Positions 7,978-61,569 of a DNA stretch of 64,000 bases are shown piece after piece. The notes beneath the pieces are model-generated. The model was not told the DNA's origin, searched no databases, and saw only the letters and a program-made list of their open reading frames with translations. This DNA comes from a bacterium (GTDB lineage: Bacteria; Krumholzibacteriota; Krumholzibacteriia; LZORAL124-64-63), in contig JADJQR010000001.1 of NCBI GenBank assembly GCA_016712675.1, forward strand, positions 3,351,056 to 3,415,055, written 5' to 3'. Positions within the stretch are counted from its first letter, which is position 1. Every line of letters starts with the position of its first letter. The position numbers and the translations under genes were made by a program.

Positions 7978-8076
7978 CCACCGGGCGGTGGACAGGGGGC
8001 GAACCCCGGCTTTGGATTATAGCGCATCGGGGCGGCAAGGCCACGGAGAAATTGATCGCGTCTTGGGGATAATTGC

Positions 8077-8099
8077 TCACATGACAGCCATTTATGTGA
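8077..8099. promoter_or_regulatory. Palindromic candidate operator in a divergent intergenic region
   Basis: TCACAT-N11-ATGTGA perfect inverted repeat inside the locally AT-richer 325-bp region between the divergently transcribed beta-helix/C25 operon and the large C25 peptidase gene. Confidence 0.3.
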
Positions 8100-8302
8100 C
8101 CATTGCGCGGTATTTGCTGCGGAAATGGGATAATAAAGTGAGGCTACCGAACCTCATGATCTGGTATGATCTGCGCAGCGGAATCCGAGCCGCGCCCGAC
8201 CCTGGCGCGGCTCCAGTCTGCCGGCCCCGGGATGCCCCCTGGCGGCCGGCCAGCGAGCTTGCCGTGCGGCGGCCCACGCCGCCATCGCCCTTGGAGGCTT
8301 CC

Positions 8303-34785: not shown

Positions 34786-37632
34786 CTACCGGTACCCGAA
34801 CACCACCGCCCAGATGATCAGCACCACGAGTCCCAGGCCGATCGTCAGCGCCACGAACCCGAAGGTCTTGAGCGCCTTGACGAAGCCCTCGGGCAGCGGC
34901 TCGACCATGTGCTCCTCGAGCCGGCCTTCGCGCACCAGCTGCTCGTATTCGCGCGGCCGATCTTCCTTGAACTCCTCCAGCGTCATGCGGCCGGTGAAGA
35001 TCACGGGGTCCATCGGGAACCGGTCCGGACGGAAGTGCGTGTTGAAGAAGTGGATCGTGAAGATGAAGCCGGTGGCCAGCAGCGCCTCGTCCGAGTGGAT
35101 GATCTGCGCCACGTTGATGAACCAGCCCGGCAGCACCCGGGTGAACAGCTCCGGGAACCACAGGATCAGGCCGCTGAAGCCGATCATGGCGACGCCCCAG
35201 AACACCGCGAAGTAGTCGAACTTCTCCCAGTAGGTCCAGCGGCCGTACTCCGGGCGCGCACCGCGGCCGAGGAACCACTTCAGCGTGCCGATGAACTCCT
35301 GGCCGTCGCGCTGGTTGGGGAACATCCCGTCGGGCCCGAACACGAATTCGCGCCAGCTCTTGCCCGACTGCTTGCGTCGGCAGTACAGGTCATAGATATG
35401 ACGCGTGAAGTAGAAGAAGGTCAGGATGGCGCCCATACGATGCAGGGTGCCGGCGGACTGGAAGCCTCCCAGTGCCCTGGCCAGCGTCTGGGCCCACGGC
35501 AGATACGAGAACTTCAGGGTCATGCCGGTGACCGCGAGCGTCAGGAAGCTGACGATGACCATGATGTGCAGCGTGCGGTTGAGGCGATTGAAGCGTCGGA
35601 ACTGCTTCTGCCCTGCGGCCTGCTTCCTCAGCTGCCGGCTGTGCCGCAGCGCCTGGAAGCTGCGCGGCAGCCACAGCAGCGTGTGAAGGCCGAAGACGCT
35701 GAAGGTGCCCACCAGAAGTGCGGTCATGAACAACCACGTGTAGTGGATGACCGGGTACTTCGTCTTGTCATGGTGCGTGGCATGAGTCAGATAGCCGGCG
35801 AACTGCCGGTGCGCGCCCTCGTGGCACTTCGCGCACGTGCCCACGATGTTGTCGCGCGAAAGCGTCGAGGCCGGGTTGTCCGGCTTCTGGATGCTGTGCT
35901 GGCCGTGGCAATCCGAACAACTGGCCGTCTCCGTGTAGCCCAGCGCGAAGACCTTGCCGTGGTAGGTCTCGAAGTAGCTCTCGGTAACGTGTTCATGGCA
36001 CGTGCCGCACTGCGCCACGATCCGCAGCCGGAAGCCCTCGGCGTCCGTGCGCGCGATCTGGTGCGAGGTGTGGCAGTCGTTGCACATGGGCAACCGGTGC
36101 CCATCCTTCGCCTCGCCCGTGAAGTGGATGCTCTGCCGGAACTCGCGGTCGACGCCCTCGTGGCACTTCCCGCAGGTCACGTCGACCTTCGAGCGGTGCA
36201 CCGACGAGGCAGGGTCGGCGCTCGGCATGATCGCGTGCGTGGTGTGGCAGTCGACGCAGGTGGCGGTCACGACCAGGCCGCTCTTGTCCAGGGCCCGCCC
36301 GTGCGTGCTCTCCTTGTAGTTGGCCACCATGCTCTTCTCGGTGCCCTCGTAGCGCTTGTCGGCCACGCCGCCCTCGTCGTGGCACTTCCCGCACATGTCC
36401 GGGATGTTGCGCACGTGGGTCATCGACGCGGGATTCGTCCTCTTCAGGATGTCGTGCCGGCCGTGGCAGACCAGACAGTCCGGGACATCCTTGTCGCCCT
36501 GGGCGCCCAGCTTGCCGTGGATGCTGGCTTTGTAGGTCTCGACGACTTCGGCGTGGCAGATCGAGCAGTCGACCCTGTTGGGCACCGTGTCGCACGGGCG
36601 TGCGTGGCTGGGGGTGGCTCCCGTGTGGCACTGGATGCAGGCGGTCTTGACGTGCGCCGAGCCGGCCAGCATGGCGTGGTCGACGTGCATCGACCGGCCG
36701 GCGTTGGCCGGCGTCGCGCCGACGAGGTCCTTCTGGGCGTGGCACTTCAGGCACTCGCTGTCGGCCATCCCCTCGCCGTAGTACACGCGGCGGATCTCAT
36801 GCGGCTCGTGGCATTCAATGCAGGCCGGGACCTTGCTCGGTTCCTTCTCCCAGAGTTGGCCCTCGATGACCTTCGCGTGCACTTTCTCGATCATCCCGTG
36901 ACACGACTGGCACATGCCGGCGATGTTGTCGCGATGGATGCTGCTCTTGGGGTCCTTGTGGTTGCGCACGTTGTGCGCTGTGTGGCAGTCCGAGCACACG
37001 GCCGAGTTCGTCAGGCCCCGCTTGTAGAGGCCCTCGCCGTGAATCGAGAAGGAGTAGTGCGCCAGGATGCTATCCTGCGACACCTCGGCGTATTCGCGGA
37101 TGGCCTCGCCTTCCCGGTGGCAGCGCCCGCACATCACCGGGATGTTGAAGCGGTTGACCTTCGACGCGGGATCGTTCGGCGGCATGATGTCGTGCGCGCC
37201 GTGGCAGGTCCAGCAGCGCGGGGCGATGGGCACGCCCTGGCTGACTCCCACCCCGTGCAGGCTACCGGCATACTGCGCGGCCACACCGTCATGGCACGTG
37301 CCGCAGTCCACGTCCGGCAGTTCCTCCGCGTGCGGCCAGTCCTCCACGCCCGCCAGCGACTGGTGGCAGTCCACGCAGCCGATGCCCTCACGCCCGTGCA
37401 CCGAGCGGTTGTAGACCCCGAGGTCGAAGTAGAGCGACTTGACCTGACCGCGCTCGTTCTTGGTGAGGCTACGGTCGTCGTGGCACATCTGGCAGGTGTC
37501 CGCGTCCTGGGCCAGGGCGTCGGCTGCGGTCAGGGCCAGGCCCAACGACGCCATCGCTGTCGCCAGCCACAGCAGGCCGCCGCGCCGTCGGCGGTCCTGG
37601 TGGCGTGGTCCACGCGGGAAGCTCATCGGCAC
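34786..37632 (-). CDS. Multiheme c-type cytochrome (19 CxxCH) fused to a C-terminal membrane cytochrome-b-like domain (CbcL-like)
   Basis: 19 CxxCH motifs counted in the first ~600 aa (CQMCH, CVDCH, CGTCH, CWTCH, CGRCH, ... CAKCH), then about six TM helices bearing conserved His (LHTLLWL, LHIMVIV, LHRMGAIL, IHFFNTHF). Confidence 0.8.
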   Translation of the reverse strand: MPMSFPRGPRHQDRRRRGGLLWLATAMASLGLALTAADALAQDADTCQMCHDDRSLTKNERGQVKSLYFDLGVYNRSVHGREGIGCVDCHQSLAGVEDWPHAEELPDVDCGTCHDGVAAQYAGSLHGVGVSQGVPIAPRCWTCHGAHDIMPPNDPASKVNRFNIPVMCGRCHREGEAIREYAEVSQDSILAHYSFSIHGEGLYKRGLTNSAVCSDCHTAHNVRNHKDPKSSIHRDNIAGMCQSCHGMIEKVHAKVIEGQLWEKEPSKVPACIECHEPHEIRRVYYGEGMADSECLKCHAQKDLVGATPANAGRSMHVDHAMLAGSAHVKTACIQCHTGATPSHARPCDTVPNRVDCSICHAEVVETYKASIHGKLGAQGDKDVPDCLVCHGRHDILKRTNPASMTHVRNIPDMCGKCHDEGGVADKRYEGTEKSMVANYKESTHGRALDKSGLVVTATCVDCHTTHAIMPSADPASSVHRSKVDVTCGKCHEGVDREFRQSIHFTGEAKDGHRLPMCNDCHTSHQIARTDAEGFRLRIVAQCGTCHEHVTESYFETYHGKVFALGYTETASCSDCHGQHSIQKPDNPASTLSRDNIVGTCAKCHEGAHRQFAGYLTHATHHDKTKYPVIHYTWLFMTALLVGTFSVFGLHTLLWLPRSFQALRHSRQLRKQAAGQKQFRRFNRLNRTLHIMVIVSFLTLAVTGMTLKFSYLPWAQTLARALGGFQSAGTLHRMGAILTFFYFTRHIYDLYCRRKQSGKSWREFVFGPDGMFPNQRDGQEFIGTLKWFLGRGARPEYGRWTYWEKFDYFAVFWGVAMIGFSGLILWFPELFTRVLPGWFINVAQIIHSDEALLATGFIFTIHFFNTHFRPDRFPMDPVIFTGRMTLEEFKEDRPREYEQLVREGRLEEHMVEPLPEGFVKALKTFGFVALTIGLGLVVLIIWAVVFGYR

Positions 37633-39889: not shown

Positions 39890-41611
39890 TCAGCGCACGA
39901 CCGTCAGTTTCCGGGCGTGCTCCCGGCCCGCCGAGGTCACCACGGCCAGGTACGTGCCCGCCGGGGCGGGTCGGCCGTCTTCGGCGCGTCCATCCCAATG
40001 GAAGCGGTGGCGGCCGGGTCCGAGGTGCCCCCCGAAGATCCGCCGGAAGCGGCGGCCCCGCGCATCATAGACGTCCACCTCCACGGCGGCGCCTGCCGTC
40101 ATCGCGCAATCGAACCAGGTGCCGCCGTTGCACGGATTCGGCTCGATCGAAACCAGCCTGCCACGCGGAGGCAGGGGCGGACCGGGAATCGTGTCCACAT
40201 CGATCGTCCACGCGCGGGCTTCTCCGGCGCGTGCGGGGTTGCCGACGACGATCCCGACCGAAGCCAGTCGACCGGCCGGAGTGCGCAGCACGACCTGCGC
40301 GTCGTTCTCGCGGTCCAGCCCGACCGATTCGAGCGACGCGCCACCATCCACGTCACGCACATGGAGCGCCAGCGACAGGGGCCCGTCGTCCTCGTGCCCG
40401 TCGAACGTCAGCCGCAGCAGGCACTCGCCCAGGTCCTCGAAACCACCCAGTTCCACCGGTGTCGCGGCAAGATGCGCCACGGTCCCCGTGATCCGCGCCG
40501 GGTAGCTCTCGGCCCGCGCGAAAACGTCACCCGTCGGATAGTCGGCCGCGTCGGCATAGCCCATCCCCACCACGGCGCGCTTGCCGACCACGTAGTTCCA
40601 GCCGGTGAAGCCCGCCCAGGCTGCGGCCAGCGAGGCACCGCGCGGCGCCAGCACCCCATCCCACGCGGCCAGGGGATCCTCGTCCGGCATGGTAGCGCGG
40701 CGTTCCCAGTAGTCGCGTATGACCGCATCGCCCCAGCGCGCGTTCAGCCAGATCGCGAACACGGCGTCATCGTACGAGCCCGTGCCACCCGGCCCGCTGT
40801 CCAGCGGCAACTGCGGCCGGCGGACCGGGCTGTCGCCCAGCAGGTAGTGGTGGTAGGCATTGACCAGGGGAAAGGTGCGCTCCTCGGCCCAGGTGGCGTC
40901 GAGTTCCGTCCAATTGCCCTCGCTCCAGCGGCTGCCGGCGTACTGGCTGCAGTGTCTGAACTCGTGGGCCGCCGTGACCTTCGCCGAACCGATGGCGTTG
41001 CCCTCGGGATCGTCGTTCGGCGGGAAACGACTGTAGGAGTTGTGAAGCACGATACGGGAGGTTCCGGCGCCGGGGTCGACCGGCACCGTATAGCCGTAGT
41101 AGTGCATGCGGCGGAACGAGACATCGATGGGGCCGCCCGGCGGGGCGCGGAAGCCGAACTCCCCGATCGCGAGGTCCCAGGACTCCTCGAGGTACCTGGC
41201 GATGTGGGCGACGAAGTCGGGCACGCCATCCTGCGGGTCGTCGTCGGCGCTGGGCACCGCGTTGTCGCCCGTTGCGAACCAGCCCAGGCGGAAGTGGCCG
41301 CCCGGGCTGAGCAGGGTGTTCTCATCGCTGACATACGCAAGGAAGTCGTCGATCGTGCTGACGGTCCCTGGTGAGAGACCCGGACGCTGCTCGAGATACT
41401 CGCGCACCTGAGACGTGCCGCAGCCGGCGTCGTCCATCGGCCCGCCCTCGCCGGCGCCACCGTCGAACGCGGCGCGGAAGCGGTCGAGCAGCCCCTGTCC
41501 GGCATCGAGGGGCACGGCGGCACCCGCCGCCGGCGGGGCCGCCAGGACGGACGGCAACAACGCCGCCAGCAGTGCGGCAGCCAAACTCGCCCTGACTTCG
41601 AGCGGGCACAT
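39890..41611 (-). CDS. Secreted HExxH zinc metallopeptidase-like protein with T9SS-type C-terminal domain
   Basis: Signal peptide; HExxH motif (AAHEFRHC); C-terminal IEPNPCNGG...VDVYDARGRRFRRIF...GTYLAVV...KLTVVR. Confidence 0.6.
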   Translation of the reverse strand: MCPLEVRASLAAALLAALLPSVLAAPPAAGAAVPLDAGQGLLDRFRAAFDGGAGEGGPMDDAGCGTSQVREYLEQRPGLSPGTVSTIDDFLAYVSDENTLLSPGGHFRLGWFATGDNAVPSADDDPQDGVPDFVAHIARYLEESWDLAIGEFGFRAPPGGPIDVSFRRMHYYGYTVPVDPGAGTSRIVLHNSYSRFPPNDDPEGNAIGSAKVTAAHEFRHCSQYAGSRWSEGNWTELDATWAEERTFPLVNAYHHYLLGDSPVRRPQLPLDSGPGGTGSYDDAVFAIWLNARWGDAVIRDYWERRATMPDEDPLAAWDGVLAPRGASLAAAWAGFTGWNYVVGKRAVVGMGYADAADYPTGDVFARAESYPARITGTVAHLAATPVELGGFEDLGECLLRLTFDGHEDDGPLSLALHVRDVDGGASLESVGLDRENDAQVVLRTPAGRLASVGIVVGNPARAGEARAWTIDVDTIPGPPLPPRGRLVSIEPNPCNGGTWFDCAMTAGAAVEVDVYDARGRRFRRIFGGHLGPGRHRFHWDGRAEDGRPAPAGTYLAVVTSAGREHARKLTVVR

Positions 41612-45396: not shown

Positions 45397-47532
45397 TCAG
45401 GGCCGGATGCGGCTCTCGTCGAGAAGTCGGCAGCCTTCCATGAGGATCGATTCCAGCGGCAGCCCGATGTTGGGCGCGGGGAACTCCGACTCCGGCTGCA
45501 CGGCGAACGCCCCGTCATCCTCCCAGGCGATGACACTGTAGACGGCGTCGGCGCCGCGCAGCGTGCCGCTGGCCGCATGCACCAGCTGGCCGCGGTCCAG
45601 GAACATCACCGCGCGCTCGCCGCCGGGACGCTGCAGGTCGATGCGCACGGACTTGAGGCTCTGGCTCAGCGTCTGCATGAGGTCGGTGAAGGCGAACGCG
45701 GTGAAGGCGGCCTGGAAGCTGCCCGGACGCGACGGAGACGAAGGGACTCCGCCGGGAGCACCGGACGCCGACGCACGCAGCGCCTTGCGCAGGCGTGCGG
45801 CCACCAGTTCCAGGTCGCGCGGCAACGCGAAGACGTCGTCGAAGCCGGCATCGAACAGCGTCAACAGCCGCGCCGGGTCGGCCTCGCCGGTCAGGGCGAA
45901 CACCGGCAGGCGCGTGCCCGCGGCCAGGCGTTCGCGCGCCCGCAGGATCTCGTGCGGGAAGCTCCCCTCGTGCACGAGCACGGCCGCCGGCGCCTGCCGG
46001 GCGCACAACTCCGCCGCCTCATCGAGCGTCCGCAGCACCAGGGTGCGGTACCCGAGATGCCCCAGGCGAGCCCCGAGCTGCCGCAGGGTCCGGTCATCGC
46101 CACCCACCACGAGCAGTTGCTGTCCGGCGCCCGCGACGAGTTCGTCCTCGGTGCGCGCGAGTACCTGGAGGTAGCGTTCGACGATCTCCGGACGCGCCAG
46201 TTGGCCGCCGCGGGCGCGCAGCGAGGCGTTGCGGTTGGCGGTGTGCGCCTCGCCCACGCCGGCCACAGCCGCGGAGCGCTGGTGATGGTGCCAGACCAGG
46301 GCCAGCACCTGGGCCGCCTGCGCCGTCTCGGGGTCGTTACGGCCGAATTCATCCAGGTTCACGCGCCCGCCCAGCAGCTGGCGCATTGCCGCCAACGCCG
46401 CGTCGACGCGCCAGGGGAAGGCGACGGCCGTTGCGGTGCCCAGCGTGCGGGACCAGTCGATGCCGGTGCCGTCGTCGGCCAGGAGCGCCTCGACGTTCGC
46501 GGCAGGGGGCGCCGCCGGGGCCAGCAGGAGCGCGGCCACTTCCAGCCCGTCGATCGCCAGGAGTTCGAACCCGAGCGACTCGCCGAGCGCGCGCGCGTCA
46601 CGCCGCAAGAGATCATAGGCCGGCGGCTGCGGCTGGCCTTCGCCAGCCTGCTCCGCAATCAGCTGAAGGGCGCCCAACAGGCTCCTGCGCAGCGCCGGGT
46701 ACGGCGCGACCGTGTCCAGCAGGGTCTCGCCGATCTGCCCCAGCCGCGTGACCGGCGGCTGTGACACACCGGTCGCGACGGCGGGCACCCGGTCGCGCCA
46801 GGCCGTCGCCATGTCCTCGGCCAGGAGCACGTGCCCAACGTCGCCGCGCGCCAGCAGCGCGCCGGCCTGGACCGGATCCGCGGCGACGACGAGCGTGCGG
46901 CCCTCGCGCTCGAACAGCGGGGCCAGGAAGCTGGCCAGGAAGGAGCGCCCGGTGACCAGCAGCACCGAGCGATCGGCAGGTGCGGCGGTCTCCGCGGAAT
47001 CGCCTGCCGTGGCCGCCTCCGTCTCTTCCGCGCCGGCGAACAGCTCCGGCAACTCGATCAGGCGACGGGGGCCATGCAGCGCGTCGCCATCGAGCCCCGC
47101 ACCGACCAACAGCTTCTCGAGCGTCACCTCGGGGATGACGCACACCTCGAGTTGGCGACAACGCAGCAGCGCGCGCACCTGGCCGATGGCCGTCGAGTCG
47201 CGCGGGTCCACGGCGGCCAGGGACAGCGTCCCCGATTCCTCGTCGAGCGACAACGGCAGCACCAGGTGCTGGCGCGTGAAGCCCTCGGGCAATCGGCCCA
47301 CCAGATCCGGTGATGGCCGATGTCGCGCCAGGTCGAACGCGGGCACGCCGAACTGCACGGACAGCGCCCGGCCGAGCTGCTCCTCCGTGACGTGTCCATC
47401 GTAGACCAGGTGCGTGCCTAGCCGCCCGCCCAGGCCCTGCTGCTTGCGCAGGGCCTGCGCCACCTGTTCCGCCGTGGCGAAGCCCAGGCGGATCAGGATC
47501 TGGTCGAGGCGTTCCGTGCGTGCGTTCGTCAT
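45397..47532 (-). CDS. Multidomain regulator: N-terminal T2SS-E N-terminal (MshEN-like) domain, receiver-like domains, C-terminal DUF4388-like domain
   Basis: N-terminus (LGFATAEQVAQALRKQQ...GHVTEEQLGRALSVQFGVPAFDL) resembles GSPII_E_N/MshEN; C-terminus (FTDLMQTLSQSLKSVRIDL...) resembles DUF4388; lies directly downstream of pilT. Confidence 0.55.
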   Translation of the reverse strand: MTNARTERLDQILIRLGFATAEQVAQALRKQQGLGGRLGTHLVYDGHVTEEQLGRALSVQFGVPAFDLARHRPSPDLVGRLPEGFTRQHLVLPLSLDEESGTLSLAAVDPRDSTAIGQVRALLRCRQLEVCVIPEVTLEKLLVGAGLDGDALHGPRRLIELPELFAGAEETEAATAGDSAETAAPADRSVLLVTGRSFLASFLAPLFEREGRTLVVAADPVQAGALLARGDVGHVLLAEDMATAWRDRVPAVATGVSQPPVTRLGQIGETLLDTVAPYPALRRSLLGALQLIAEQAGEGQPQPPAYDLLRRDARALGESLGFELLAIDGLEVAALLLAPAAPPAANVEALLADDGTGIDWSRTLGTATAVAFPWRVDAALAAMRQLLGGRVNLDEFGRNDPETAQAAQVLALVWHHHQRSAAVAGVGEAHTANRNASLRARGGQLARPEIVERYLQVLARTEDELVAGAGQQLLVVGGDDRTLRQLGARLGHLGYRTLVLRTLDEAAELCARQAPAAVLVHEGSFPHEILRARERLAAGTRLPVFALTGEADPARLLTLFDAGFDDVFALPRDLELVAARLRKALRASASGAPGGVPSSPSRPGSFQAAFTAFAFTDLMQTLSQSLKSVRIDLQRPGGERAVMFLDRGQLVHAASGTLRGADAVYSVIAWEDDGAFAVQPESEFPAPNIGLPLESILMEGCRLLDESRIRP

Positions 47533-47533
47533 C

Positions 47534-48619
47534 TCACGTATGCACCGGCGTCGGCCGCGTTTCGCTGCGCGCGCGCTGGGCCAGGCTGGCCGGCTCGGCC
47601 GCGTAGCGGACGGCCTCGTCGGTGGTGATCACGCCCTCGGCGATCATCTGCCCGAGGTGCTGGTCCAGCAGCTGCATCCCTTCCTTGCGCGCGGTGGTCA
47701 TCGCGTTGTTGATCAGGTGGCTCTTCTGCTCGCGGATCAGGTTGCGGATCGCCGGATTGCCGACCAGGATCTCCAGCGCGGCCACGCGACCCTTCTTGTC
47801 GGCACGTCGCACCAGCTGCTGCGAGCAGACACCCACCAGCACCTCGGAGAGCATGTGCCGGATCTGCGTCTGCTGGTTGCCCGGGAACGGATCCACGATG
47901 CGGCTGATGGTCTGCGCGGCCGAGCGCGTGTGCAGCGTGCCGAGCACGAGCTGACCCACCTCGCTTGCCGTCAGCGCCAGCGAGATCGTCTCCAGGTCGC
48001 GCATCTCGCCGACCAGGATGACGTTCGGGTCCTCGCGCAGCGAGGCACGCAGGGCCGACGCGAAGGTCGCACAGTGCTCGCCCACCTGGCGCTGGTTGAT
48101 CAGGCAGTTCTTGTTCGGGTGGATGAATTCCAACGGGTCTTCCAGCGTGATGATGTGGCCGTGCAGCGTCTCGTTCAGGTGGTTGACCATCGCCGCCAGC
48201 GTGGTCGACTTGCCCGAGTTCGTGGGCCCGGTCACCAGGATGAGCCCCGAGCGCGCGGTCAGCATGTTCTTCAGGACCGCCGGCATGCCCAACTGCTCGA
48301 GCGTGGGCACCTCGTTGGGAATGATACGGAAGGCGGCCGCCAGCCCCGGGTATTTCTTGTAGACGTTGATGCGGAAGCGGGCCACGCCCGGCAGCGTGTA
48401 CGCCAGGTCCAGGTCGCCATGGGACTCGAGCACCTCGATCTGCGCCTCGCTCAGGAGCTCGTAGATCGTGATCCGCAGTTCCTCCTCGGACAGCGGGCGA
48501 TGCTCCCCACGCTGCAGCACCCCGTTGATGCGCAGCATCGGCTCGCAATTCGCGCTCAGGTGCAGGTCCGAGACGCTGTACTCCTGCATGATCCTCAGGA
48601 AGGCGTCGATACGGGGCAT
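47534..48619 (-). CDS. pilT: Type IV pilus retraction ATPase PilT
   Basis: Walker A (VTGPTNSGKSTT) and PilT-specific blocks (GEMRDLETISLALTASEVGQLVLGTLHT). Confidence 0.9.
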   Translation of the reverse strand: MPRIDAFLRIMQEYSVSDLHLSANCEPMLRINGVLQRGEHRPLSEEELRITIYELLSEAQIEVLESHGDLDLAYTLPGVARFRINVYKKYPGLAAAFRIIPNEVPTLEQLGMPAVLKNMLTARSGLILVTGPTNSGKSTTLAAMVNHLNETLHGHIITLEDPLEFIHPNKNCLINQRQVGEHCATFASALRASLREDPNVILVGEMRDLETISLALTASEVGQLVLGTLHTRSAAQTISRIVDPFPGNQQTQIRHMLSEVLVGVCSQQLVRRADKKGRVAALEILVGNPAIRNLIREQKSHLINNAMTTARKEGMQLLDQHLGQMIAEGVITTDEAVRYAAEPASLAQRARSETRPTPVHT

Positions 48620-48674
48620 GGCCGTCCCTGTCGTCGGGTCCGTCGAGCGTCGGCGCAGACTCTCGGGGCCAACG

Positions 48675-48691
48675 TTGCAAATTCCGTGCCC
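48675..48691 (-). promoter_or_regulatory. Sigma-54 (RpoN)-type -24/-12 promoter candidate upstream of pilT
   Basis: Minus-strand sequence GGGCACGGAATTTGCAA fits the GG-N10-GC core with GCACG and TTGCA flanks; about 55 nt upstream of the pilT start codon. Confidence 0.45.
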
Positions 48692-48804
48692 TCCGGTCGC
48701 TTTAGGAACCTGTTGTCAGGAAACAGGATGGAATCGTAGAGGGCGCACCGGCAGCGGCGCCGGGAACGCTCACTGACCACCGGGAGATCAGAGGGGACCG
48801 AAGG

Positions 48805-49449
48805 TCAGAAGGCGATGGCGGCCGTGAATTGCCAGTGTGTCAGGCGGGTGCCGTCGCGCGGCTCGTCCACGCCGGGCAGCGGATCCTCGTATTTCGCAGC
48901 CGCCGGGCGGGTACCGGTCGGATCCGGCACAAGTTGGCCGCTCAAGCCCCGGCAGTAGCGAGCCTCCAGACCGAACGGACCCGACCGCCACGATAGACCC
49001 AGATGGAGAGCGAAATCCAGGTCCCTGTAGCCCCACGCCTCCGAGGGTACGCCGGGGAACGACGACCATTCCTCGGACAGTTTGAGCCCCGCCGAGAGCC
49101 CGGCCCGTGGGCGCGGCAAGAACCAGGGCATGGCAGCCAGTTCGAGCATGACGACGGGCTGGGCGACATGCAATGTCACCTCCGCGTCGGTCAGCCGGAA
49201 GCCGGTCACCGGGTCGGAGAACCAGGTCGGCTGGGCGCCGCGCTTCTGCACGTACTCGAGGGCGTACACCAGATCGACCCCGACCGGAGCCAGCGACGTC
49301 CGCGCGCCGACTCCCAGCACCAGCCCGCCGCGGTCCTCGTGCAGGCCCACGTCGGTCAGGGCCCAGCCGGCGGAAGCCTCCCAAACGGCCGCCTGCGCGG
49401 TACCGGCCGCCAGCGCCACGAGGATCACGACCGTCGCGGCGGCTGCCAT
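48805..49449 (-). CDS. Small outer-membrane beta-barrel-like protein
   Basis: Start moved to the internal ATG at 49449 (signal peptide MAAAATVVILVALAAGTAQA); ends ...QFTAAIAF with C-terminal Phe. Confidence 0.45.
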   Translation of the reverse strand: MAAAATVVILVALAAGTAQAAVWEASAGWALTDVGLHEDRGGLVLGVGARTSLAPVGVDLVYALEYVQKRGAQPTWFSDPVTGFRLTDAEVTLHVAQPVVMLELAAMPWFLPRPRAGLSAGLKLSEEWSSFPGVPSEAWGYRDLDFALHLGLSWRSGPFGLEARYCRGLSGQLVPDPTGTRPAAAKYEDPLPGVDEPRDGTRLTHWQFTAAIAF

Positions 49450-49475
49450 CCCTCCGTACCCGCGGCGCACGCGCA

Positions 49476-50144
49476 CTAGTGGTCTCCCGCGAACAGCTTC
49501 TCGCCGGCTTCGACGGCGAATTCCAGCGTGTTCTCGCGCGGCGGCAGCGTGCAGTTGAAAGCGTCCGGATTGTAGTCGCACAGCGGGTTGTACGCGTAGT
49601 TGAAGTCAAGGTCGATGAGCCCGTCGGCATCCCTGCGCAGGTCCAGGTAGCGCCCGCCGCCGTACGTCTCCTTGCCAGAGGTCGCGTCGTAGAAGGGCAG
49701 CCACAGATGGCCGTCCGCGCCAGGATCGACCGGCGCGAACACGCCGAGCCGATGCACTTTGCCGGCGTGCGAGAAGGCCACCGTGCCGCGGCGCACGTAG
49801 CGCACGTCGTTGCCCTTGCGCTTGGCCAGCCTGACGGTGTCTGGCTTCGCCTCGGCCAGCAACTGCGTCCGGAAGCGGAGTTCCGGCTTCGGGAAATAGT
49901 AGTTGAGGCCCTCGAACCCGGGGAGCTTCTCCGCCGGCAGGGGTGTCCGCTCCGGGTCGGAGAACTCCTCGTTCTTGTCGATCCGCATCTCCACCAGCGC
50001 GATCTCCCAGGCTTCGTGCTGTGCGGCGTCCATCGCGACGGCGCCCGGCGCTGGCGGCTCGGAACCGCAGCCAGCCAGGGGGAACAGCGTGGCGGCCGCC
50101 AGGACCGCGAGGAAGACGAAGGGCAGGGTTCGCGCAGCGGACAT
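49476..50144 (-). CDS. DUF1684-like lipoprotein
   Basis: Lipobox (LFPLAGC); conserved YNPLCDYNPDAFNCTLPPREN block as I recall for DUF1684. Confidence 0.5.
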   Translation of the reverse strand: MSAARTLPFVFLAVLAAATLFPLAGCGSEPPAPGAVAMDAAQHEAWEIALVEMRIDKNEEFSDPERTPLPAEKLPGFEGLNYYFPKPELRFRTQLLAEAKPDTVRLAKRKGNDVRYVRRGTVAFSHAGKVHRLGVFAPVDPGADGHLWLPFYDATSGKETYGGGRYLDLRRDADGLIDLDFNYAYNPLCDYNPDAFNCTLPPRENTLEFAVEAGEKLFAGDH

Positions 50145-53865: not shown

Positions 53866-54735
53866 TCACCGCAGCATCGACATCTTCCTCGTCTCCACGC
53901 CCCACGGCGTCGTCAGCCGGCAGAAGTAGGTGCCCGACGGCATCGGCACGCCGAAGGCGTCCTGACCGTCCCAGTCGGCGGTGTGCGCACCCGCAGGCAG
54001 CGGCTGGTCGACCAGGCGGGCCACGAGCCGGCCCTTGGCATCGTGGATGGTCACCAAGGCATGGCCGGCGGCCGGCAGCGTGAAGCTCACTGTCGTCCGC
54101 GGGTTGAAGGGGTTTGGGTAGTTCTGGCGCAGCGCGGCGCCGCCCGCGACGGGGACGCCGGGCGCATCCACCGTCCCCGCCGGGACCGGGATGTTGAACG
54201 TGAAGTTGTCGATGCCCTGCAGGACCTCCCTCATTCGGATCATCGCCACGACAGGTTCCGGGAAGCTGAAGGTCACCAGATTTCCGGAGCCTTCGTTCCA
54301 CGCCTCAGCCAGGAGTTCGCCGTGGATGTCGAACGCCTGCATCAGTATTCCCTCTCCCGGTCCCCAACAGTTGTCCTGGGCGGTTCCCACGAAGTCGGTC
54401 ACCGCCGGAGCCCCCGTGAGCGGATCCACGAACCAGGCGAGGACGGCGGGATCTCCGCCGACGTGGTTCGGAGAAGACAGGGAACACATGTGCGGGACGG
54501 CGTACACGGCCCGCGACGAGTCCCCCATGGTGAACACCACGCCGAGGCTGCTCCACTGATCGTGCACGGTGTAACCCTCCGGGACGGGTGAGCCGTCCGG
54601 ATAGGTGTCGAAGTCGACAATCTCCCGTGTCGCCACCTCGCCGAAACCGGACACCGGTGCCTCATCCCGAGCGACGACCTGCACCGCCACACCCGTGCTC
54701 GCCAACGTCACCGTCGCGAAGACCAACCACCACAT
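53866..54735 (-). CDS. Secreted protein of unknown function with T9SS-type C-terminal domain
   Basis: Start set at the ATG at 54735 (GAAGGAGG RBS just upstream; signal peptide MWWLVFATVTLAS); C-terminal NYPNPFNPRTTVSFTLP...IHDAKGRLVARL...GTYFCRL...KMSMLR. Confidence 0.6.
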   Translation of the reverse strand: MWWLVFATVTLASTGVAVQVVARDEAPVSGFGEVATREIVDFDTYPDGSPVPEGYTVHDQWSSLGVVFTMGDSSRAVYAVPHMCSLSSPNHVGGDPAVLAWFVDPLTGAPAVTDFVGTAQDNCWGPGEGILMQAFDIHGELLAEAWNEGSGNLVTFSFPEPVVAMIRMREVLQGIDNFTFNIPVPAGTVDAPGVPVAGGAALRQNYPNPFNPRTTVSFTLPAAGHALVTIHDAKGRLVARLVDQPLPAGAHTADWDGQDAFGVPMPSGTYFCRLTTPWGVETRKMSMLR

Positions 54736-54949
54736 GACGGCCTCCTTCGTACCAGTAGCGCCCATGCGCGCTTCATCGAGCGCACTCCCGATTCGATGAT
54801 ACCATGTCGAATGGTGGTTTTCCGGACGATCCACGATTCGTCTGCTTCAGGTTCCTGCGCGACGGATCTCTGGGGTTGTGCCGTCGAGATCGTGCCCGGC
54901 CCGGGGACGGGTCGTTGAGCCTACAGTCCTGTTCTCCCTGATTCCCGCG

Positions 54950-55065: not shown

Positions 55066-57447
55066 ATGAAGCGCGCCGCCCGCCTACTCCTGCCCTGCTT
55101 CCTCGTCACCTGCTGGGCGACCAATGCCGCTGGTGCCACGATCCACGTGATGGAGTTCCGCCAGCTCGTCTACCAGGTCGAAGAAGGAACCGGTCCGGGT
55201 GAACCCGATGATGTCGGGTCGCTGCTCGTGGCCTACGGCAAGGACCTTGACGTGGGGTACCTGAATCTCGCCGCGGTCATTCCCGGCCTGACCCCCGACC
55301 CGGTCTGGCTCGTGGCCAACATGCCGCTGTACTCACAGCAGATGGGTCCGCCGCTGGCCGAGACCGCCGTGCGGCTGCCGTTGTCATGGCTTGGCATCGA
55401 GTATGGCATGACGGCCATGAACATCCAGTTCGGCTGGGAGGTCCTGGCTTCGCCGCTAACCGAGACCGCTGGCGAACTGTGGGCGCAGACCGTGCCCCTG
55501 CTCTACGACCAGCCCGTCTTGCGGCAGGTTGTCGACGCCAAGGGATCGAAGCCCGACCTGTCCGAACGTGAGTACATCTGGCCCGATCCCTCCGGCCTCT
55601 GGCGTGAACCCTTTTCGCCTGCCGAGCCGTTCCTCGTGACCTACAGCACCATCGGCTGCAATATGCCCAACATCCCGCTCAACGAGGCCACCAATCCCAT
55701 GGACGGCGCCGGCTGCGTCGCCGCCTCGACCACCAACAGCATGATGTGGCTGGACGGAAAGCACGACGAAATCACGTTCCCCGGCGACCAGCGCCAGATC
55801 TTCGCGCAGTTCAGCCACCTGATGAACCGCAAGCCCGGGGATGGCGTAACGACCGAGGAGCAGGCCCGAGCCAAGCTCGACTTCATTGAAGCCCACGGCC
55901 TGCCCATCAAGGTGAAAATCCAGAACAAGTTCTCCAACGGGAATGTCAAGAGCAGCAGCGGCCGCTCCAGCGCCGAGGACACCGACGGCGGACCCGAGGG
56001 CACCTGGCCCGGCCTCGCCTGGATCCAGAGCGAGACGCAGGACGAGGAAGACGTCGAGATCAACTACGGCTACTGGTACAAGGACGCCTCCGGCAAGTGG
56101 CGACGCAACGGAGGCCATTCGGTGGTGCTGACCGGGGCGGGCACGGTGCTCGGCGCTCCCTACATCGACATCAAGCACGATGCCAAACAAGGCGACGACA
56201 GCGGCGTCGTGGAGGAGCGTTACTGGCTGACCAGCGCCCCGAACGGTGCCGTCGAGATCTCCGGCGAAGGCGGCCGGTGGAAGCACGCCGACGGCGTCAC
56301 GTACGAACACCACGCGTTCATTGACGGCGTGGTCAGCGAAAGTCTGGACACGGGCGCGACGCCGCCACCATCCAGCGAGACCTTCGGCGGCTACTGCCAG
56401 GAATTCGTACGGGTGATCCCGCCCGGCAAGACCCTGGAGATCGATTTCCCCTCGTCGACGTGGTGGTGCCGCAACGTCACGGTCTACACGCGCGACCGCT
56501 CCGATGATCCGGCCAAGGACGTCAAGTTCACCGAATGGAACGACAACGGAGGCAAGACCCGCAAGATAGCCAACGCCGACACCATCAGGACCCTGACCGT
56601 TGTCGTCCACTGCGACGACCGCCAGCCCTATCGGCTCGGCTACTCGCCGTGGAGCGTGGGTCTAAGGATGGTCGCCAACTCCGGCAAGGAGACCACGCCC
56701 GGCAATCCGGAGGACTATGGCGGCTTCTCGATGGGCTGGTCAGACAGCTCGAGCGCCGAGTTCCGATTCATCACGGCGCCCAGCGTGATGGTCGCCGCCG
56801 ACATCGGCGCCGACCTGAGCCAGATGCCGGGCTGGCTGGGCATGACGACCGGCTGCCAGGAGCTGTGGCTTACCCGCCAGATCCCGGTCTGGAACCACCA
56901 CTGGCAGGAACTCGGCTTCATCGTGGACGTGGTCGAGGTCGCCCAACCCGGCGATCTCTTCGTTGATTGCCCACAGACCGCGACGGCCGTGATGATCCCC
57001 ATCGCCGCTCCCGGTCGCTACGAGATCCACCTGGGCCTGATGGCGCCGGCGCCGGACTTCCAGATCCGCCTGGCGCCGAGCCACGGACTGGAGATGGCTC
57101 TGGACTGCGTGGGCGTGCCGAGCATGGTCGACGACGCTGCCGGCGTGGACGAGAACTCCGACCTGCCCGAGCGCCCGGTGATCCGCGCCGTCTATCCCAA
57201 TCCGTTCAACCCGGCGGTGACGATCCGCTTCGCCCTGCCGCGACCGCTCGACGTCGAACTGCTCGTCTACGATCTGCAGGGTCGCCGTGTGGCGACGGTC
57301 TTCAAGGGCCGCCTGGCCGAAGGCAGCCAGACACTGGACTGGCGCGGCCGCACGGACGACGGGCAGGACGTCGCCGCGGGCACCTACCTGGTGCGTCTGC
57401 GGGCTGGAGGTGAGACGGTCACGTCCAAGGCCACTCTGGTCAAGTGA
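55066..57447 (+). CDS. Secreted protein of unknown function (793 aa) with T9SS-type C-terminal domain
   Basis: Signal peptide (MKRAARLLLPCFLVTCWATNAAGA); C-terminal VYPNPFNPAVTIRFALP...VYDLQGRRVATV...GTYLVRL...KATLVK; sigma-70-like promoter upstream. Confidence 0.65.
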   Translation: MKRAARLLLPCFLVTCWATNAAGATIHVMEFRQLVYQVEEGTGPGEPDDVGSLLVAYGKDLDVGYLNLAAVIPGLTPDPVWLVANMPLYSQQMGPPLAETAVRLPLSWLGIEYGMTAMNIQFGWEVLASPLTETAGELWAQTVPLLYDQPVLRQVVDAKGSKPDLSEREYIWPDPSGLWREPFSPAEPFLVTYSTIGCNMPNIPLNEATNPMDGAGCVAASTTNSMMWLDGKHDEITFPGDQRQIFAQFSHLMNRKPGDGVTTEEQARAKLDFIEAHGLPIKVKIQNKFSNGNVKSSSGRSSAEDTDGGPEGTWPGLAWIQSETQDEEDVEINYGYWYKDASGKWRRNGGHSVVLTGAGTVLGAPYIDIKHDAKQGDDSGVVEERYWLTSAPNGAVEISGEGGRWKHADGVTYEHHAFIDGVVSESLDTGATPPPSSETFGGYCQEFVRVIPPGKTLEIDFPSSTWWCRNVTVYTRDRSDDPAKDVKFTEWNDNGGKTRKIANADTIRTLTVVVHCDDRQPYRLGYSPWSVGLRMVANSGKETTPGNPEDYGGFSMGWSDSSSAEFRFITAPSVMVAADIGADLSQMPGWLGMTTGCQELWLTRQIPVWNHHWQELGFIVDVVEVAQPGDLFVDCPQTATAVMIPIAAPGRYEIHLGLMAPAPDFQIRLAPSHGLEMALDCVGVPSMVDDAAGVDENSDLPERPVIRAVYPNPFNPAVTIRFALPRPLDVELLVYDLQGRRVATVFKGRLAEGSQTLDWRGRTDDGQDVAAGTYLVRLRAGGETVTSKATLVK

Positions 57448-57721: not shown

Positions 57722-60700
57722 CTATCTCAGCAAGCTCAGCTTCCTGGTGAAATCGGTCCCGCCAATGTTCACGCGTACAATGTACACGCCGCTGGCTGCC
57801 ACATCACCGTTCCGACCCAAGCCATCCCATACCTCACGGTAGTGTCCCGCCACGCGCTGGCCCGACCACAGTTCCCGCACAAGACGGCCCCGAACGTCGT
57901 AGAGCCTGACCGAAACGCGTGCCGTCGCCGGCACCCGGTATTCCACACCGATGCGCGGGTTCGCGGGATTGGGAACAACGACGACGGATTGCCCGAGCGT
58001 TTGCACGTCGATCGCGCGGCCGTCGTTGTCCGGGTCATCACCTTCACCCAGTGGCACTCCGGACACCTCCAAGATCTCCAGCTGTACCGACGCCTCGTTG
58101 TTTTCCCAACTCAGCTCCGATGCGCCATCGTCCGGAATGACCATCAAGCGATAGGACCGTGGGCCAGGATGCAACGGCAGGTCCTCACAGGTGACGTCGC
58201 AGGTCGAATTGGCGGCGATGGAGACGCTCCGGCGCAGCAACTCCGACCCGGACCCTTCGGCGACAATCAGGATCTCGGCCAGGCGAGCCGAAGTTCCGGC
58301 GTTGCGGACCGTTGCCTCGACACGCACCGGAGATCCGATGCGATTTCCCTCCGAGGTCGCCACCAGGGATCCCGCATCGATCAGCAAGTCGGTTGCGACC
58401 GCTTGGATCAACCCCAAGGTCGCGCGTCGTTCAAAGGGCGTCGGTGCATCGCCGCGACCGACGACGGAAAGCTCATAGTTGCCCGGTTCCGAGAGGGGCA
58501 CGAAGGCCGCGCTGTAGACGCCGTCGCCGGCCGTATCGCCTTCGGTCAACCCATCATCCAGGAGGGGAAACGAAGCGATGGAAACGCCGTCGAGCGTCAG
58601 CTCGGCGGCCACTGTCGCACCGAGTACCGCCGAGTGCGCGCCGTGTTCGATCGCAGCGCGGACGACGCGCTCATTCCCCGTGCCATCGACATCGGGCTCG
58701 AGCATGGCGTTCATCGCGACGGCATTGACGCCGTCGACAAGGTAGACGATGCCGTAGTCGACAGTCGCGTGATCGTCACGGGCGCACACCTGCCATGCTC
58801 CCGCTTCGGGAGCGGCGACCAGATAGGACATGAGACCGGATTCGGGGTCCGTTTCGCAGGTGATCAGCGGGTCGACATCAGCGACAGCCTCGTCGACAAC
58901 CTGACCAGTGGGCGTCCTCAGAAAGGCCGACGTCGATCCCGATCTGAAGAGATAGGAGAATCGCAACGTGTCGGCTGCTGCACTGGAAATCGTGGCCACG
59001 GCTTCCACGCCTGGCGTCAGTGAAAGCACGCCTGCGTCCAGAGAGCGCCATGAAGCCACGTCGACGCTCGCGGCCGGATCGATGGCCGCCGTCGCCATCG
59101 CACGATCGTCGTCCGTCAGAAGCGCCTTGACGACATCCCACACGTTCGGGTCTTCGACAACACCGAGACTGGCGCTTCGCTTGTGATGGACGTTCGGGAT
59201 GATGAGGTTCTCCACATTGGGCGCCGTGCTCGACAACTGGGCCGAGACGAGAGGAACTGCTCCGTCGTTCTCGAGGCAGTTCCACGGCGGTGCCGCAAGA
59301 AGAGTCGCCGTCAACAGGTACGGCCCAAGCCATGATTGACCAGGATCACCGGCAATCGCGAAATACCGCGTGCTTCCGTTGAGTCTGACTTCTGGTGGCG
59401 GTGCGGGCCAACCGCATAGGCCGCTCCAGTCAGGCGCCCAGGGCGATGCAGTTCCTCGATTGAGTTCGCGCATGAACGGACTGCTCGGCATCAGGTCGAT
59501 CAGCGCCGGATGCGACGTCAACAATTCCACCAGGTCGCGACCAATCGCGATTGGCGCTCCCGGTTGCGGATTCAGTGCCGCCTGCAGGAGCGCATAGACG
59601 CCGGCCAGTGAAAGGACGAGAGGGCTGCCATGGTGCGGCGTCGCCAACGTGACGAGCTTCCGCACGGAAACCGGCGCGATGGCGAACATCTCATTGTAGT
59701 AGCGACTCGTCAGGCCCCCTTGGCTGTGGGCGACGATATCCACTGTCCTGACGTCGAGATGCTCCAGGTAGGTACGAAGCTGCCGCGCTTGCTGTCGGAT
59801 GCCGTCCAACCCGCACAGATCGTCGAGGCAATGGCCCAGTTGCAGATCGTGTGCTACGGCGAAGCCGTTCGCCGACAGGTAGCCCGCCAGTCCGGGGTCG
59901 CCGCAATCCCAGATCGACGGCCCGCTGGCAATGCCGTGGACCAGAACGACGACGCACGAATCCAGGGACAGAGTCGGTGCCTCGATCGAGACGTCGTCAG
60001 CCAAGACGGTGAAAGATGTCGTGCTGCCCGGCCGGTAGATGGCCTCACCGGTCAAGGGGCCCGTGAGCGCGAACTTGGTGGCCGAGACGTAGTAGTCTCC
60101 CGGTTCAACGACCGATAGCTGGACGAGGCCATCGTCGTTGGTGACGTCGGAGGTGACCTGTTCGCCGGTGGCGGCCCTGATGAGCGATACATCGGCGCCG
60201 GCAATCGGCAGACCGGCATAGGCATCGTCGATCCGGACAGTCACCACCCTTGTTGCAGCGACCTCGATCGACACTTCCTGCGAAGCGGATCCGTCCACGA
60301 AGACGGCCTCGCGCGTCGATTCATGCCCGTTGTGGCTGGCCCATACCGTGTACCAACCGGTAGCCCACGGATGGAACCCCGGCCCACCTCTCTCATTCGT
60401 CGCGAAGGTGCGCTGTGTGCCGTCCTGGCTCATGACGTGGACCGTCGCGCCTTGGAGCGCCTGGCCGGTTTCCATGGCGCTCACGGTTACCTTCACATAG
60501 GGTGCGAGCAATTGCCGTATTTCCGCAGCGGTCAGCGCGCGGTCATAGATGCGCACGTCATCGATCGTGGCGCGAACGTGTTCGTTGAGGGCAGGCGTGA
60601 CCGAGTCGTTCTCGCGACAGCCGACGCGGAAGTTGTAGGTGGGTTCCACGATGCCGGTCACGGCGACGGAATTGAGCAAGTCACCATCGATGTAGATGTG

Positions 60701-61270: not shown

Positions 61271-61569
61271 GATGCCTCCTGGGAAGTCACGGTGCATTCG
61301 AGATCCGGAGGCAAGGGAATATGAGCACGTTCTCCGCCAGCGGACCGCCGTGGTGCGTTCCCACTATGGTGAGCGATGAAGGTTAGACCAATGGAATGGA
61401 ACGGAATTCACCGGAATGCGGAGATTCGAACCCCCGCGATGCGCTCGTCTTCCGCCAGCGTGTATCCCGAAGCCGCCCCCGCCGTATATACTCCTTTCCA
61501 CCGTCCCGCCGGGCGGGGCCCCACGGCCATCGTCCCGACGCGTGCCACCCCGAGCCCGGAGCGTCAGCC

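Follow-up and report, generated by a model that had tools for sequence, protein, structure and literature searches.

How could a bacterium bring the motor that retracts its type IV pili under the control of an intracellular signal? The question is raised by a two-gene locus in a 64,000-nt stretch of DNA (hereafter the window) from a member of the Krumholzibacteriota (GenBank assembly GCA_016712675.1, contig JADJQR010000001.1, positions 3,351,056 to 3,415,055 of the forward strand). On the minus strand of the window, the pilT gene, which encodes the retraction ATPase, is preceded by a sequence resembling the -24/-12 promoters of sigma-54 (RpoN) and followed by a gene for a 711-aa multidomain protein, here called the partner. 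The first-pass annotation, made from the DNA letters, had read this arrangement as a control circuit for pilus retraction that depends on a second messenger and on an enhancer. According to our analysis, the promoter part of that proposal is strongly supported, and the partner indeed carries the fold and the motif of the cyclic di-GMP (c-di-GMP) receptor MshE; however, the motif reads RLD where a Gly residue is essential in MshE. We propose, with a rough probability of 0.55, that the locus is a sigma-54 operon encoding a degenerate adaptor, through which the type IV pilus motor responds to a nucleotide signal.

The promoter element carries the first part of this argument. The minus strand from position 48691 to 48675 reads G-GGCAC-GGAAT-TTGCA-A, with the -24 GG at 48690-48689, the -12 GC at 48678-48677, and 57 nt between this GC and the ATG of pilT at 48619, in good agreement with the GG-N10-GC match about 55 nt before pilT that had been noticed initially. 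The element GGGCACGGAATTTGCAA contains GGCAC-N5-TTGCA, the core of the sigma-54 consensus TGGCAC-N5-TTGCW, and its GGGCAC-GGAAT-TTGCA portion agrees with that consensus at 15 of 16 pattern positions and at 10 of the 11 specified bases. A scan of both strands of the 64 kb revealed a single exact occurrence of GGCAC-N5-TTGCW, where 0.31 would be expected by chance, and the same site was the only one recovered when up to one mismatch to TGGCAC-N5-TTGCW was allowed (1.6 expected). Judged from the window alone, a match above chance is only suggestive.

Comparison with related genomes lifts the sigma-54 reading above chance, because the box is conserved. A scan of species-representative genomes identified 13 loci with relatives of the 711-aa protein, mostly in metagenome-assembled genomes that are labelled Krumholzibacteriota or unclassified and range from 48 to 70% GC; 12 of these loci extend upstream of pilT, and GGCAY-N5-TTGCW is present there in every one. 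Together with the window this makes 13 of 13 sequences, among which the spacing between GG and GC is invariant; the background probability of such a site within 180 nt is about 0.01 per locus. The distance from the GC to the ATG in the related loci is 57-62 nt, with the exception of L012 (118 nt). By a simple weighted consensus score, the box ranked first among all sites on both strands of the entire locus in 10 of the 13 sequences. In the seven closest sequences, conservation covers the box and the leader that follows it and does not extend into the DNA upstream of the box, which is unalignable. This pattern, which we observe directly, has the classical form of a -24/-12 promoter revealed by phylogenetic footprinting, and we regard the identification of the box as strongly supported by it. 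Neither a sigma-70-like promoter nor an intrinsic terminator was found between positions 45200 and 49000.

The alternative, that the box is a chance match or the binding site of some other factor rather than a promoter, draws on the window statistics, in which the single exact match does not differ significantly from the 0.31 expected, and on the fact that no activator or rpoN gene was seen in the window and 19 related loci. It would have to account for a site retained at invariant GG/GC spacing and at a nearly constant distance from the ATG in every sequence compared, over the whole range of base composition and in otherwise unalignable DNA, and we consider it extremely improbable. If the box is a sigma-54 promoter, its conservation argues that rpoN and a cognate activator exist in the genome. 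The sigma-54 holoenzyme forms closed complexes whose opening requires an ATP-hydrolysing activator, so that the operon would be off by default until a specific signal is received. The label "enhancer-dependent" comes from this general knowledge of sigma-54, by which a dependence on RpoN and on an activator would be expected here as well.

From the usual geometry of sigma-54 promoters, transcription is predicted to start at about position 48665 (+/- 2), some 12 nt downstream from the -12 GC. The resulting leader of pilT is nearly invariant among the window and its closest relatives (loci L001-L006). Its predicted RNA fold is not significant (z -0.47), and no riboswitch was recognized: Rfam gave no match in the leader, and at E<=1 only a chance match to a small RNA inside the coding region. 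In the window and in the equivalent segments of L001-L006, CGAC recurs in the leader and GGA occurs twice, once within the Shine-Dalgarno region. A protein-binding site, for instance one of the CsrA type, is possible.

The gene that follows the leader was correctly named in the first-pass annotation. Its 361-aa product contains T2SSE as the sole domain detected (Pfam, 7e-45) and scores 452.3 bits over residues 4-343 against TIGR01420, the NCBIfam model of PilT/PilU family type 4a pilus ATPases (cut-off 319.1 bits). The closest solved structure is that of PilT from Pseudomonas aeruginosa (3JVU, 5e-101), with which the Walker A sequence GPTNSGKST and the sequence PAIRNLIRE, containing the AIRNLIRE motif, can be aligned. 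There is no N-terminal extension of the MshEN type. By these matches the product is a canonical PilT.

The claim that the 711-aa protein begins within 2 nt of the pilT stop also holds, since the junction reads TGA-g-ATG and the gap is 1 nt. The gene behind the partner, a member of the TauE family, is convergent, and the transcription unit is therefore limited to two genes. This pairing is conserved along with the promoter: in each of the 12 genome loci the partner gene immediately follows pilT, as it also does in L019, a further example of the linkage in DNA of 80% GC. The gaps between the two genes in the related loci range from -4 to about 40 nt, and the pilT products of the 12 related loci share 72-95% identity. 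In the more distant loci (L007-L012), no neighbouring gene is shared apart from the pair itself.

What kind of protein has been placed behind pilT? The partner falls outside every characterised family. Thirty-five full-length homologues with 35-92% identity were collected, and their public names are limited to "DUF4388 domain-containing protein", "CheY-like", "OmpR family" and "PleD family". An AlphaFold2 model built with 31 family sequences (mean pLDDT 78) comprises five folded units connected by disordered linkers: an N-terminal domain of the MshEN type, three central domains and a C-terminal PATAN (PatA N-terminal, DUF4388) domain. The last of these is the best-conserved part of the protein and matches PF14332 with 55.2 bits (9.4e-15; cut-off 25 bits) over residues 610-707, corresponding to profile positions 4-121 of 122, in keeping with the DUF4388-like C-terminus proposed originally.

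The three central domains have kept their folds and lost their chemistry. The first, a truncated receiver-like alpha/beta domain (residues 186-272), lacks all equivalents of the acidic pair DD, D57, T87 and K109 when aligned with CheY and PhoB. The third (residues 468-590) is a pseudo-receiver, with profile matches of about 1e-9 to the receivers of PhoP, KdpE and YycF, and with Foldseek TM scores of 0.82-0.87 to receivers including those of KdpE, BfmR and VicR. Among 31 sequences, its equivalent of CheY D12 is Gly in 30 and the equivalent of D13 is variable; the equivalent of the phospho-acceptor D57 is His in 16 (including the protein in the window), Asp in 10, Leu in four and Tyr in one; and the position of K109 is occupied by Leu or Pro in all 31, although T/S87 is kept. 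Some annotations present the partner as a phosphorylatable response regulator, which we reject, as its receiver has neither the acidic pair nor the Lys residue.

Between these two domains, residues 274-466 form an all-helical unit without a sequence match in Pfam or the PDB; in particular, Pfam HD and HD_5 gave no hit there even at an E-value of 10. Its fold is that of an HD-GYP domain, an assignment that is confirmed independently of the structure model, because relatives with the same domain order match HD_5. Across the family this unit has no invariant His and one invariant Asp, so the His/Asp metal site of HD-GYP enzymes, with its ligands H, HD, H, H and D, cannot form, and the GYP motif is missing as well. 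Leu-rich residues seem to stand where two relatives have HDIGK or HDLGK, a correspondence established by eye with no explicit alignment. The receiver-like central domains described in the first-pass annotation are hence borne out by structure and profile comparisons, except that residues 274-466 belong to the HD-GYP fold; this domain had been overlooked, as had the loss of catalytic and phospho-acceptor residues from both the HD-GYP-like and the receiver-like units.

The N-terminal domain is the part of the partner that could perceive a signal. Its assignment to the N-domains of type II secretion ATPases, with the fold that binds c-di-GMP in MshE, is well founded: the top Foldseek match is 5HTL, the structure of MshE with c-di-GMP (TM 0.71, E 7e-7, 32% identity), PilF, PilB and MshE were matched in profile comparisons with E-values between 1e-44 and 3e-18 (hmmsearch against 5htl_A: 2.9e-18), and the Pfam MshEN domain is recognized in residues 61-142 (3.8e-15). 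Ahead of the latter region lies the complete nucleotide-binding motif as defined for MshE, i.e. two 24-residue motifs separated by a 5-residue spacer (PMC5013675), here RLDQILIRLGFATAEQVAQALRKQ (residues 8-31), the spacer QGLGG (32-36) and RLGTHLVYDGHVTEEQLGRALSVQ (37-60). The NCBIfam model of this 53-residue motif, NF053729, is matched over all its positions (1-53) with 45.5 bits (cut-off 38 bits). In 31 sequences, down to 35% identity, the ligand-contacting positions R, L, G10, L17, L21 and Q24 are invariant or conservatively replaced in both motifs.

The c-di-GMP signature is therefore present as far as the fold and the 24+5+24 arrangement are concerned, but not at the third position of motif I, where the canonical Gly is replaced by Asp10, giving RLD instead of RLG. 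Asp occupies this position in 30 of 30 sequences, the corresponding Gly39 of motif II is present in 31 of 31, and all 37 parsable family sequences, which belong to two clades, combine RLD in the first motif with (R/K)(L/I/F)G in the second. In Vibrio cholerae MshE, the backbone amide of the equivalent residue, G11, hydrogen-bonds guanine, and the substitutions G11I and G11L abolish both c-di-GMP binding and function (PMC5013675); in PilF, a Gly to Ala change at the equivalent position of motif II lowers the affinity 10-30-fold (PMC12002112). Binding of c-di-GMP by the N-domain of the partner is in our opinion plausible but not assured. The invariance of Asp10 suggests that it has been selected rather than left by decay. 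We found no paper on an RLD variant of MshEN, although one of the queries was poorly chosen.

Two other interpretations of the partner have to be weighed at this point. According to the first, it is a scaffold blind to any ligand, in which the RLD-type MshEN, the truncated receiver, the HD-GYP-like domain and the pseudo-receiver are all fossils; as an adaptor it would contribute only structure or localisation to PilT or to the pilus base, and regulation would be exerted through sigma-54-dependent transcription only. This is suggested by the placement of the invariant Asp at the Gly position essential in MshE, by the loss of the metal ligands and of the phospho-acceptor pocket, and by the coincidence of RLD with the decay of the other domains, given that relatives with recognizable HD_5 and Response_reg domains keep RLG or RIG. 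On the other hand, a dead pocket makes it hard to explain why the remaining contact positions have been kept over such sequence distances, and the strict conservation of Asp10 itself speaks for selection. We therefore consider the ligand-blind scaffold unlikely, though not negligible.

The second interpretation takes this asymmetry at face value. It is tempting to regard the RLD/RLG arrangement as a new specificity class of MshEN domains, which would recognize a dinucleotide other than c-di-GMP, possibly an asymmetric one, or else c-di-GMP in a new binding mode; such a class seems to us quite unlikely. Its more specific version, a pocket retargeted to another or asymmetric dinucleotide such as 3'3'-cyclic GMP-AMP (cGAMP), through which a signal other than c-di-GMP would reach retraction, has a low probability. 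It gains from the strictness of the asymmetry noted above, and from the mode of discrimination in MshE, which excludes adenine by a clash of its N6 group with backbone amides at the Gly-Asp position (PMC5013675); this is the position at which a side chain could alter base preference, and the carboxylate of Asp10 would accept the adenine N6 amino group. However, an Asp at the N-terminus of a helix could simply cap the helix, and neither a cGAMP synthase nor a cGAMP-specific element was seen in the window. We retain as the preferred interpretation a degenerate adaptor that still responds to a nucleotide.

The output of such an adaptor would be expected to pass through the PATAN domain. In Synechocystis, the PATAN domains of PixE, PixG and LsiR are output domains, which bind the N-terminus of PilB1 and PilC's N-terminal domain (bioRxiv 10.1101/2021.06.11.447907), and PATAN proteins have been recovered near the Myxococcus pilus regulator SgmX. 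In this context one may ask whether the operon serves pilus retraction at all, or instead another process that depends on PilT, such as DNA uptake, a system resembling type II secretion, or the action of a regulatory PilT paralogue. The latter possibility is favored by the lack of recognizable pilin, pilB, pilC and pilM-Q genes in the 64 kb, by the prevalence in the window of cargo of the type IX secretion system (T9SS), and by the existence of several PilT paralogues in many bacteria. It is at odds with the score on the type IVa PilT/PilU model, with the identity of the best solved relatives, which are genuine retraction ATPases, and with the PATAN and MshEN domains of the partner, both of which point to type IV pilus motors; moreover, pilT is commonly unlinked to other pil genes. 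A role outside retraction is, in our assessment, rather improbable.

The evolutionary history of the partner can be traced in a wider family. When 1.84 billion representatives were searched with HMMER, the family profile retrieved 443 proteins at E <=1e-30, in which three layers can be distinguished. The first tier (more than about 520 bits, 680-735 aa) corresponds to the pilT-linked clade. Proteins of the second tier (about 220-300 bits, 700-716 aa), from another clade, share the degenerate architecture and RLD of the first but are encoded by stand-alone genes. Members of the third layer (750-840 aa; P0113, P0122, P0123, P0133, P0145 and P0170 from loci L020-L023) have the same domain order, with homology to the partner along the whole length, and in them MshEN, HD_5 (PF13487), Response_reg (55-95 bits) and DUF4388 all exceed the Pfam cut-offs. 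HDIGK or HDLGK is present in two of these proteins and GYP or GFP in four, and in two HDxGK is followed by GYP or GFP; motif I reads RLG or RIG in three. Neither P0123 nor P0133, the two whose neighbourhoods were looked up, is adjacent to pilT. This distribution suggests that an MshEN/HD-GYP/REC/PATAN enzyme (REC being the receiver domain) lost catalysis and phospho-acceptance while its pocket became RLD, and that the degenerate protein later came, in one lineage, to be encoded behind pilT and under a sigma-54 promoter. The superfamily is apparently uncharacterised, and its degenerate branch is defined here; we found no experimental study of proteins of the partner type.

The genes around the second-tier homologues deserve a separate mention. 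In L014 (8158-10702), L015 and L018 (2804-4182), the homologue is near divergent genes for an extracytoplasmic function (ECF) sigma factor and a zf-HC2 anti-sigma factor, whereas in L017 (4123-6004) only the zf-HC2 anti-sigma gene could be identified. In some of these loci a gene for a tetratricopeptide repeat (TPR) protein or an unannotated gene intervenes.

Taken together, the proposed mechanism would be as follows. The genes for PilT and the 711-aa adaptor would be transcribed as a two-gene operon from the RpoN promoter, which would stay silent until opened by an ATP-dependent enhancer-binding protein whose gene lies elsewhere in the genome. The adaptor would descend from an MshEN/HD-GYP/REC/PATAN signalling protein that lost its phosphodiesterase and phospho-acceptor chemistry and retained two interaction modules, namely the asymmetric MshE-type pocket with its RLD and RLG half-sites, and the C-terminal PATAN domain. 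Co-produced with PilT by virtue of the coupled TGAgATG junction, it would dock at the base or platform of the pilus via PATAN, and perhaps also via its PilB-like N-domain, and the occupancy of the MshEN pocket, reflecting the level of a cyclic dinucleotide, would bias the competition between PilB and PilT at the base. The operon would in this way give PilT in trans the regulatory N-domain that PilB has in cis. The binding of a ligand and the choice of the pilus motor as the adaptor's partner are predictions; the link to retraction we infer from the operon structure only, and the direction of the effect is likewise conjectural.

A number of observations weigh against this scheme. With respect to its transcriptional part, no Pfam match to RpoN or to an enhancer-binding protein was obtained among the scanned open reading frames (ORFs) of the window, six-frame searches for the GAFTGA and Walker A peptide signatures of enhancer-binding proteins were negative in the window and 19 related loci, and rpoN was absent from the same sequences; the ten ORFs flanking the operon in L008, L009, L010 and L012 likewise contain neither rpoN nor an enhancer-binding protein. 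No conserved upstream site for an activator or for the integration host factor (IHF) was found either, the seven closer relatives being unalignable upstream of the -24 element, and the sole dyad upstream, a 6-nt CCTGTT-N7-AACAGG at 48709-48727, is not conserved. These negative results on rpoN, activators and activator sites apply to the window and about 200 kb of related loci, and sigma-54 activators are often encoded elsewhere in the genome.

With respect to its pilus part, the window lends no support to the presence of type IV pili in this organism, as it contains no other pilus genes. The first-pass annotation had reported the absence of pilB, pilC and pilin genes, and in a Pfam scan of ORFs that were selected by GC3 and had 80 aa or more (a few short calls being nested in longer ORFs) we indeed found no match to pilB, pilC, pilin or pilM-Q, although a short pilin could escape the 80-aa floor; nor are there other pil genes among the ten ORFs on the flanks of the operon in L008, L009, L010 and L012. 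A contact of the partner with PilT itself finds no support in our analysis, and in Synechocystis neither PilT1 nor PilT2 was bound by the PATAN regulators, which did bind PilB1 and PilC (bioRxiv 10.1101/2021.06.11.447907). Furthermore, owing to Asp10 at the Gly position essential in MshE, the pocket may bind weakly, be blind to its ligand or have changed target. Finally, the second-tier homologues have neither pilT nor a -24/-12 box beside them, from which it follows that the function of the partner does not depend strictly on the linkage to pilT.

It is instructive to compare the operon with the systems it resembles. In MshE of V. cholerae, PilF of Thermus thermophilus and other ATPases of the MshE/PilB2/PilF type, one finds the same N-terminal fold and the same 24+5+24 motif in the same context of a type IV pilus motor; in these proteins, however, MshEN is fused to the ATPase and motif I has the essential Gly, while here the domain has Asp and resides on a protein of its own, whose gene follows that of the retraction ATPase. 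The cyanobacterial PatA-type PATAN-REC regulators (PixG, PixE, LsiR and PilG of Synechocystis) share with the partner the PATAN domain and a receiver fold. In them, PATAN precedes a phosphorylatable REC, whereas in the partner a non-canonical receiver precedes PATAN, with MshEN and HD-GYP-like domains in addition; their genes are linked to chemosensory operons rather than to pilT, and the known partners of PATAN are PilB and PilC, not PilT. Similar combinations of domains have been recorded before: some PATAN proteins also have a GspE_N domain (bioRxiv 10.1101/2021.06.11.447907), MshEN fusions to HD-GYP and to REC have been listed (PMC5013675), and MXAN_2807 of M. xanthus is cited as combining HD-GYP with MshEN (PMC8844925). 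Compared with the third-layer proteins described above, in which HD_5 and Response_reg score above the cut-offs and some of which have RLG or RIG in motif I, or HDxGK and GYP/GFP motifs, the partner has lost all of these features and gained the pilT operon and the sigma-54 box.

Two further analogies concern the promoter and the adaptor. Sigma-54 promoters of the -24/-12 type drive pilA in Pseudomonas, Myxococcus and Geobacter, and pilE in commensal Neisseria, under control that is enhancer-dependent and all-or-none. These RpoN/PilR-type systems and the present operon have in common a -24/-12 promoter before a pilus gene, but the target is a pilin there and a retraction ATPase operon here, and no PilR-like activator is found near the latter. 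We found no paper on a sigma-54 promoter or sigma-54 control of pilT, and none on pili or sigma-54 in the Krumholzibacteriota. In Xanthomonas, the FimX-PilZ-PilB complex and the RpfG(HD-GYP)-GGDEF-PilZ-PilT/PilU complex are built on degenerate-domain adaptors that relay c-di-GMP to the pilus ATPases. The N-domain of PilB serves there as a docking surface, and 7LKO is among the fold matches of the partner; however, the Xanthomonas adaptors use EAL, GGDEF and PilZ domains, whereas here MshEN, HD-GYP-like and PATAN domains are united on one polypeptide and no PilZ was seen. All the parts of the proposed system are known, and their combination should be regarded as a well-founded hypothesis rather than a new principle.

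The features of the locus and the T9SS-type cargo genes in its surroundings are listed in Table 1.

Table 1. Positions of the pilT operon, of the domains encoded by it and of T9SS-type cargo genes in the window
Feature	Position	Strand	Residues	Basis
Sigma-54 type -24/-12 promoter element GGGCACGGAATTTGCAA	48675..48691	-		direct read
Predicted pilT 5' leader with AGGGA Shine-Dalgarno-like element	48620..48665	-		
pilT, type IVa pilus retraction ATPase	47534..48619	-	361 aa	T2SSE, TIGR01420
Partner gene, MshEN / receiver-like / HD-GYP-like / pseudo-receiver / PATAN protein	45397..47532	-	711 aa	
MshEN (GspE/PilB N-terminal) domain	47098..47532	-	1-145	
53-residue MshE-type nucleotide-binding motif	47353..47511	-	8-60	NF053729
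Truncated receiver-like alpha/beta domain	46717..46977	-	186-272	AlphaFold2 secondary structure
Degenerate HD-GYP-fold helical domain	46135..46713	-	274-466	
Pseudo-receiver (REC fold)	45763..46131	-	468-590	profile and Foldseek
PATAN (DUF4388) domain	45409..45720	-	605-708	Pfam PF14332
T9SS-type cargo genes	2498-6238, 6235-7977, 7718-13423, 16867-19401	-, -, +, -		
T9SS-type cargo genes (continued)	39890-41611, 53866-54834, 55066-57447, 57722-61297	-, -, +, -		

Several other genes in the window merit attention in their own right. Large secreted proteins with FlgD_ig or Por_Secre_tail ends, which are markers of T9SS-type cargo, occur at an unusual density; among them are two C25 peptidases that resemble gingipains (1246 and 1901 aa). 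Upstream of pilT, the ORF 48805-49581 (minus strand) encodes a putative outer-membrane beta-barrel and overlaps the DUF1684 gene (49476-50144, minus strand) by about 100 nt; its relatives match only the last ~190 residues, so the true start probably lies downstream of 49581. At 34786-37632 (minus strand) there is a gene for a 948-aa protein with a multihaem cytochrome c region (c7/c3, paired CXXCH) and a membrane part weakly similar to cytochrome b561, while the CapC and Mur-ligase-like genes at 845-2481 (minus strand) are likely a pair for the synthesis of a poly-gamma-glutamate capsule.

With respect to the biology of pili, the control of extension by c-di-GMP through the N-domains of PilB and MshE is well documented, whereas the route by which a nucleotide signal reaches the retraction ATPase PilT is much less clear. 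The conserved operon of PilT with a protein that combines a nucleotide pocket of the MshE type and a PATAN domain makes a concrete candidate for this link, found in an uncultured and poorly known lineage comprising the Krumholzibacteriota and their relatives. The strict replacement of Gly by Asp at the residue most critical for c-di-GMP recognition provides a natural experiment on the specificity of the MshEN pocket. As for the wider family, the third-layer architecture, if it functions as we read it, would unite c-di-GMP sensing, c-di-GMP hydrolysis, phospho-input and output to the pilus motor in one protein.

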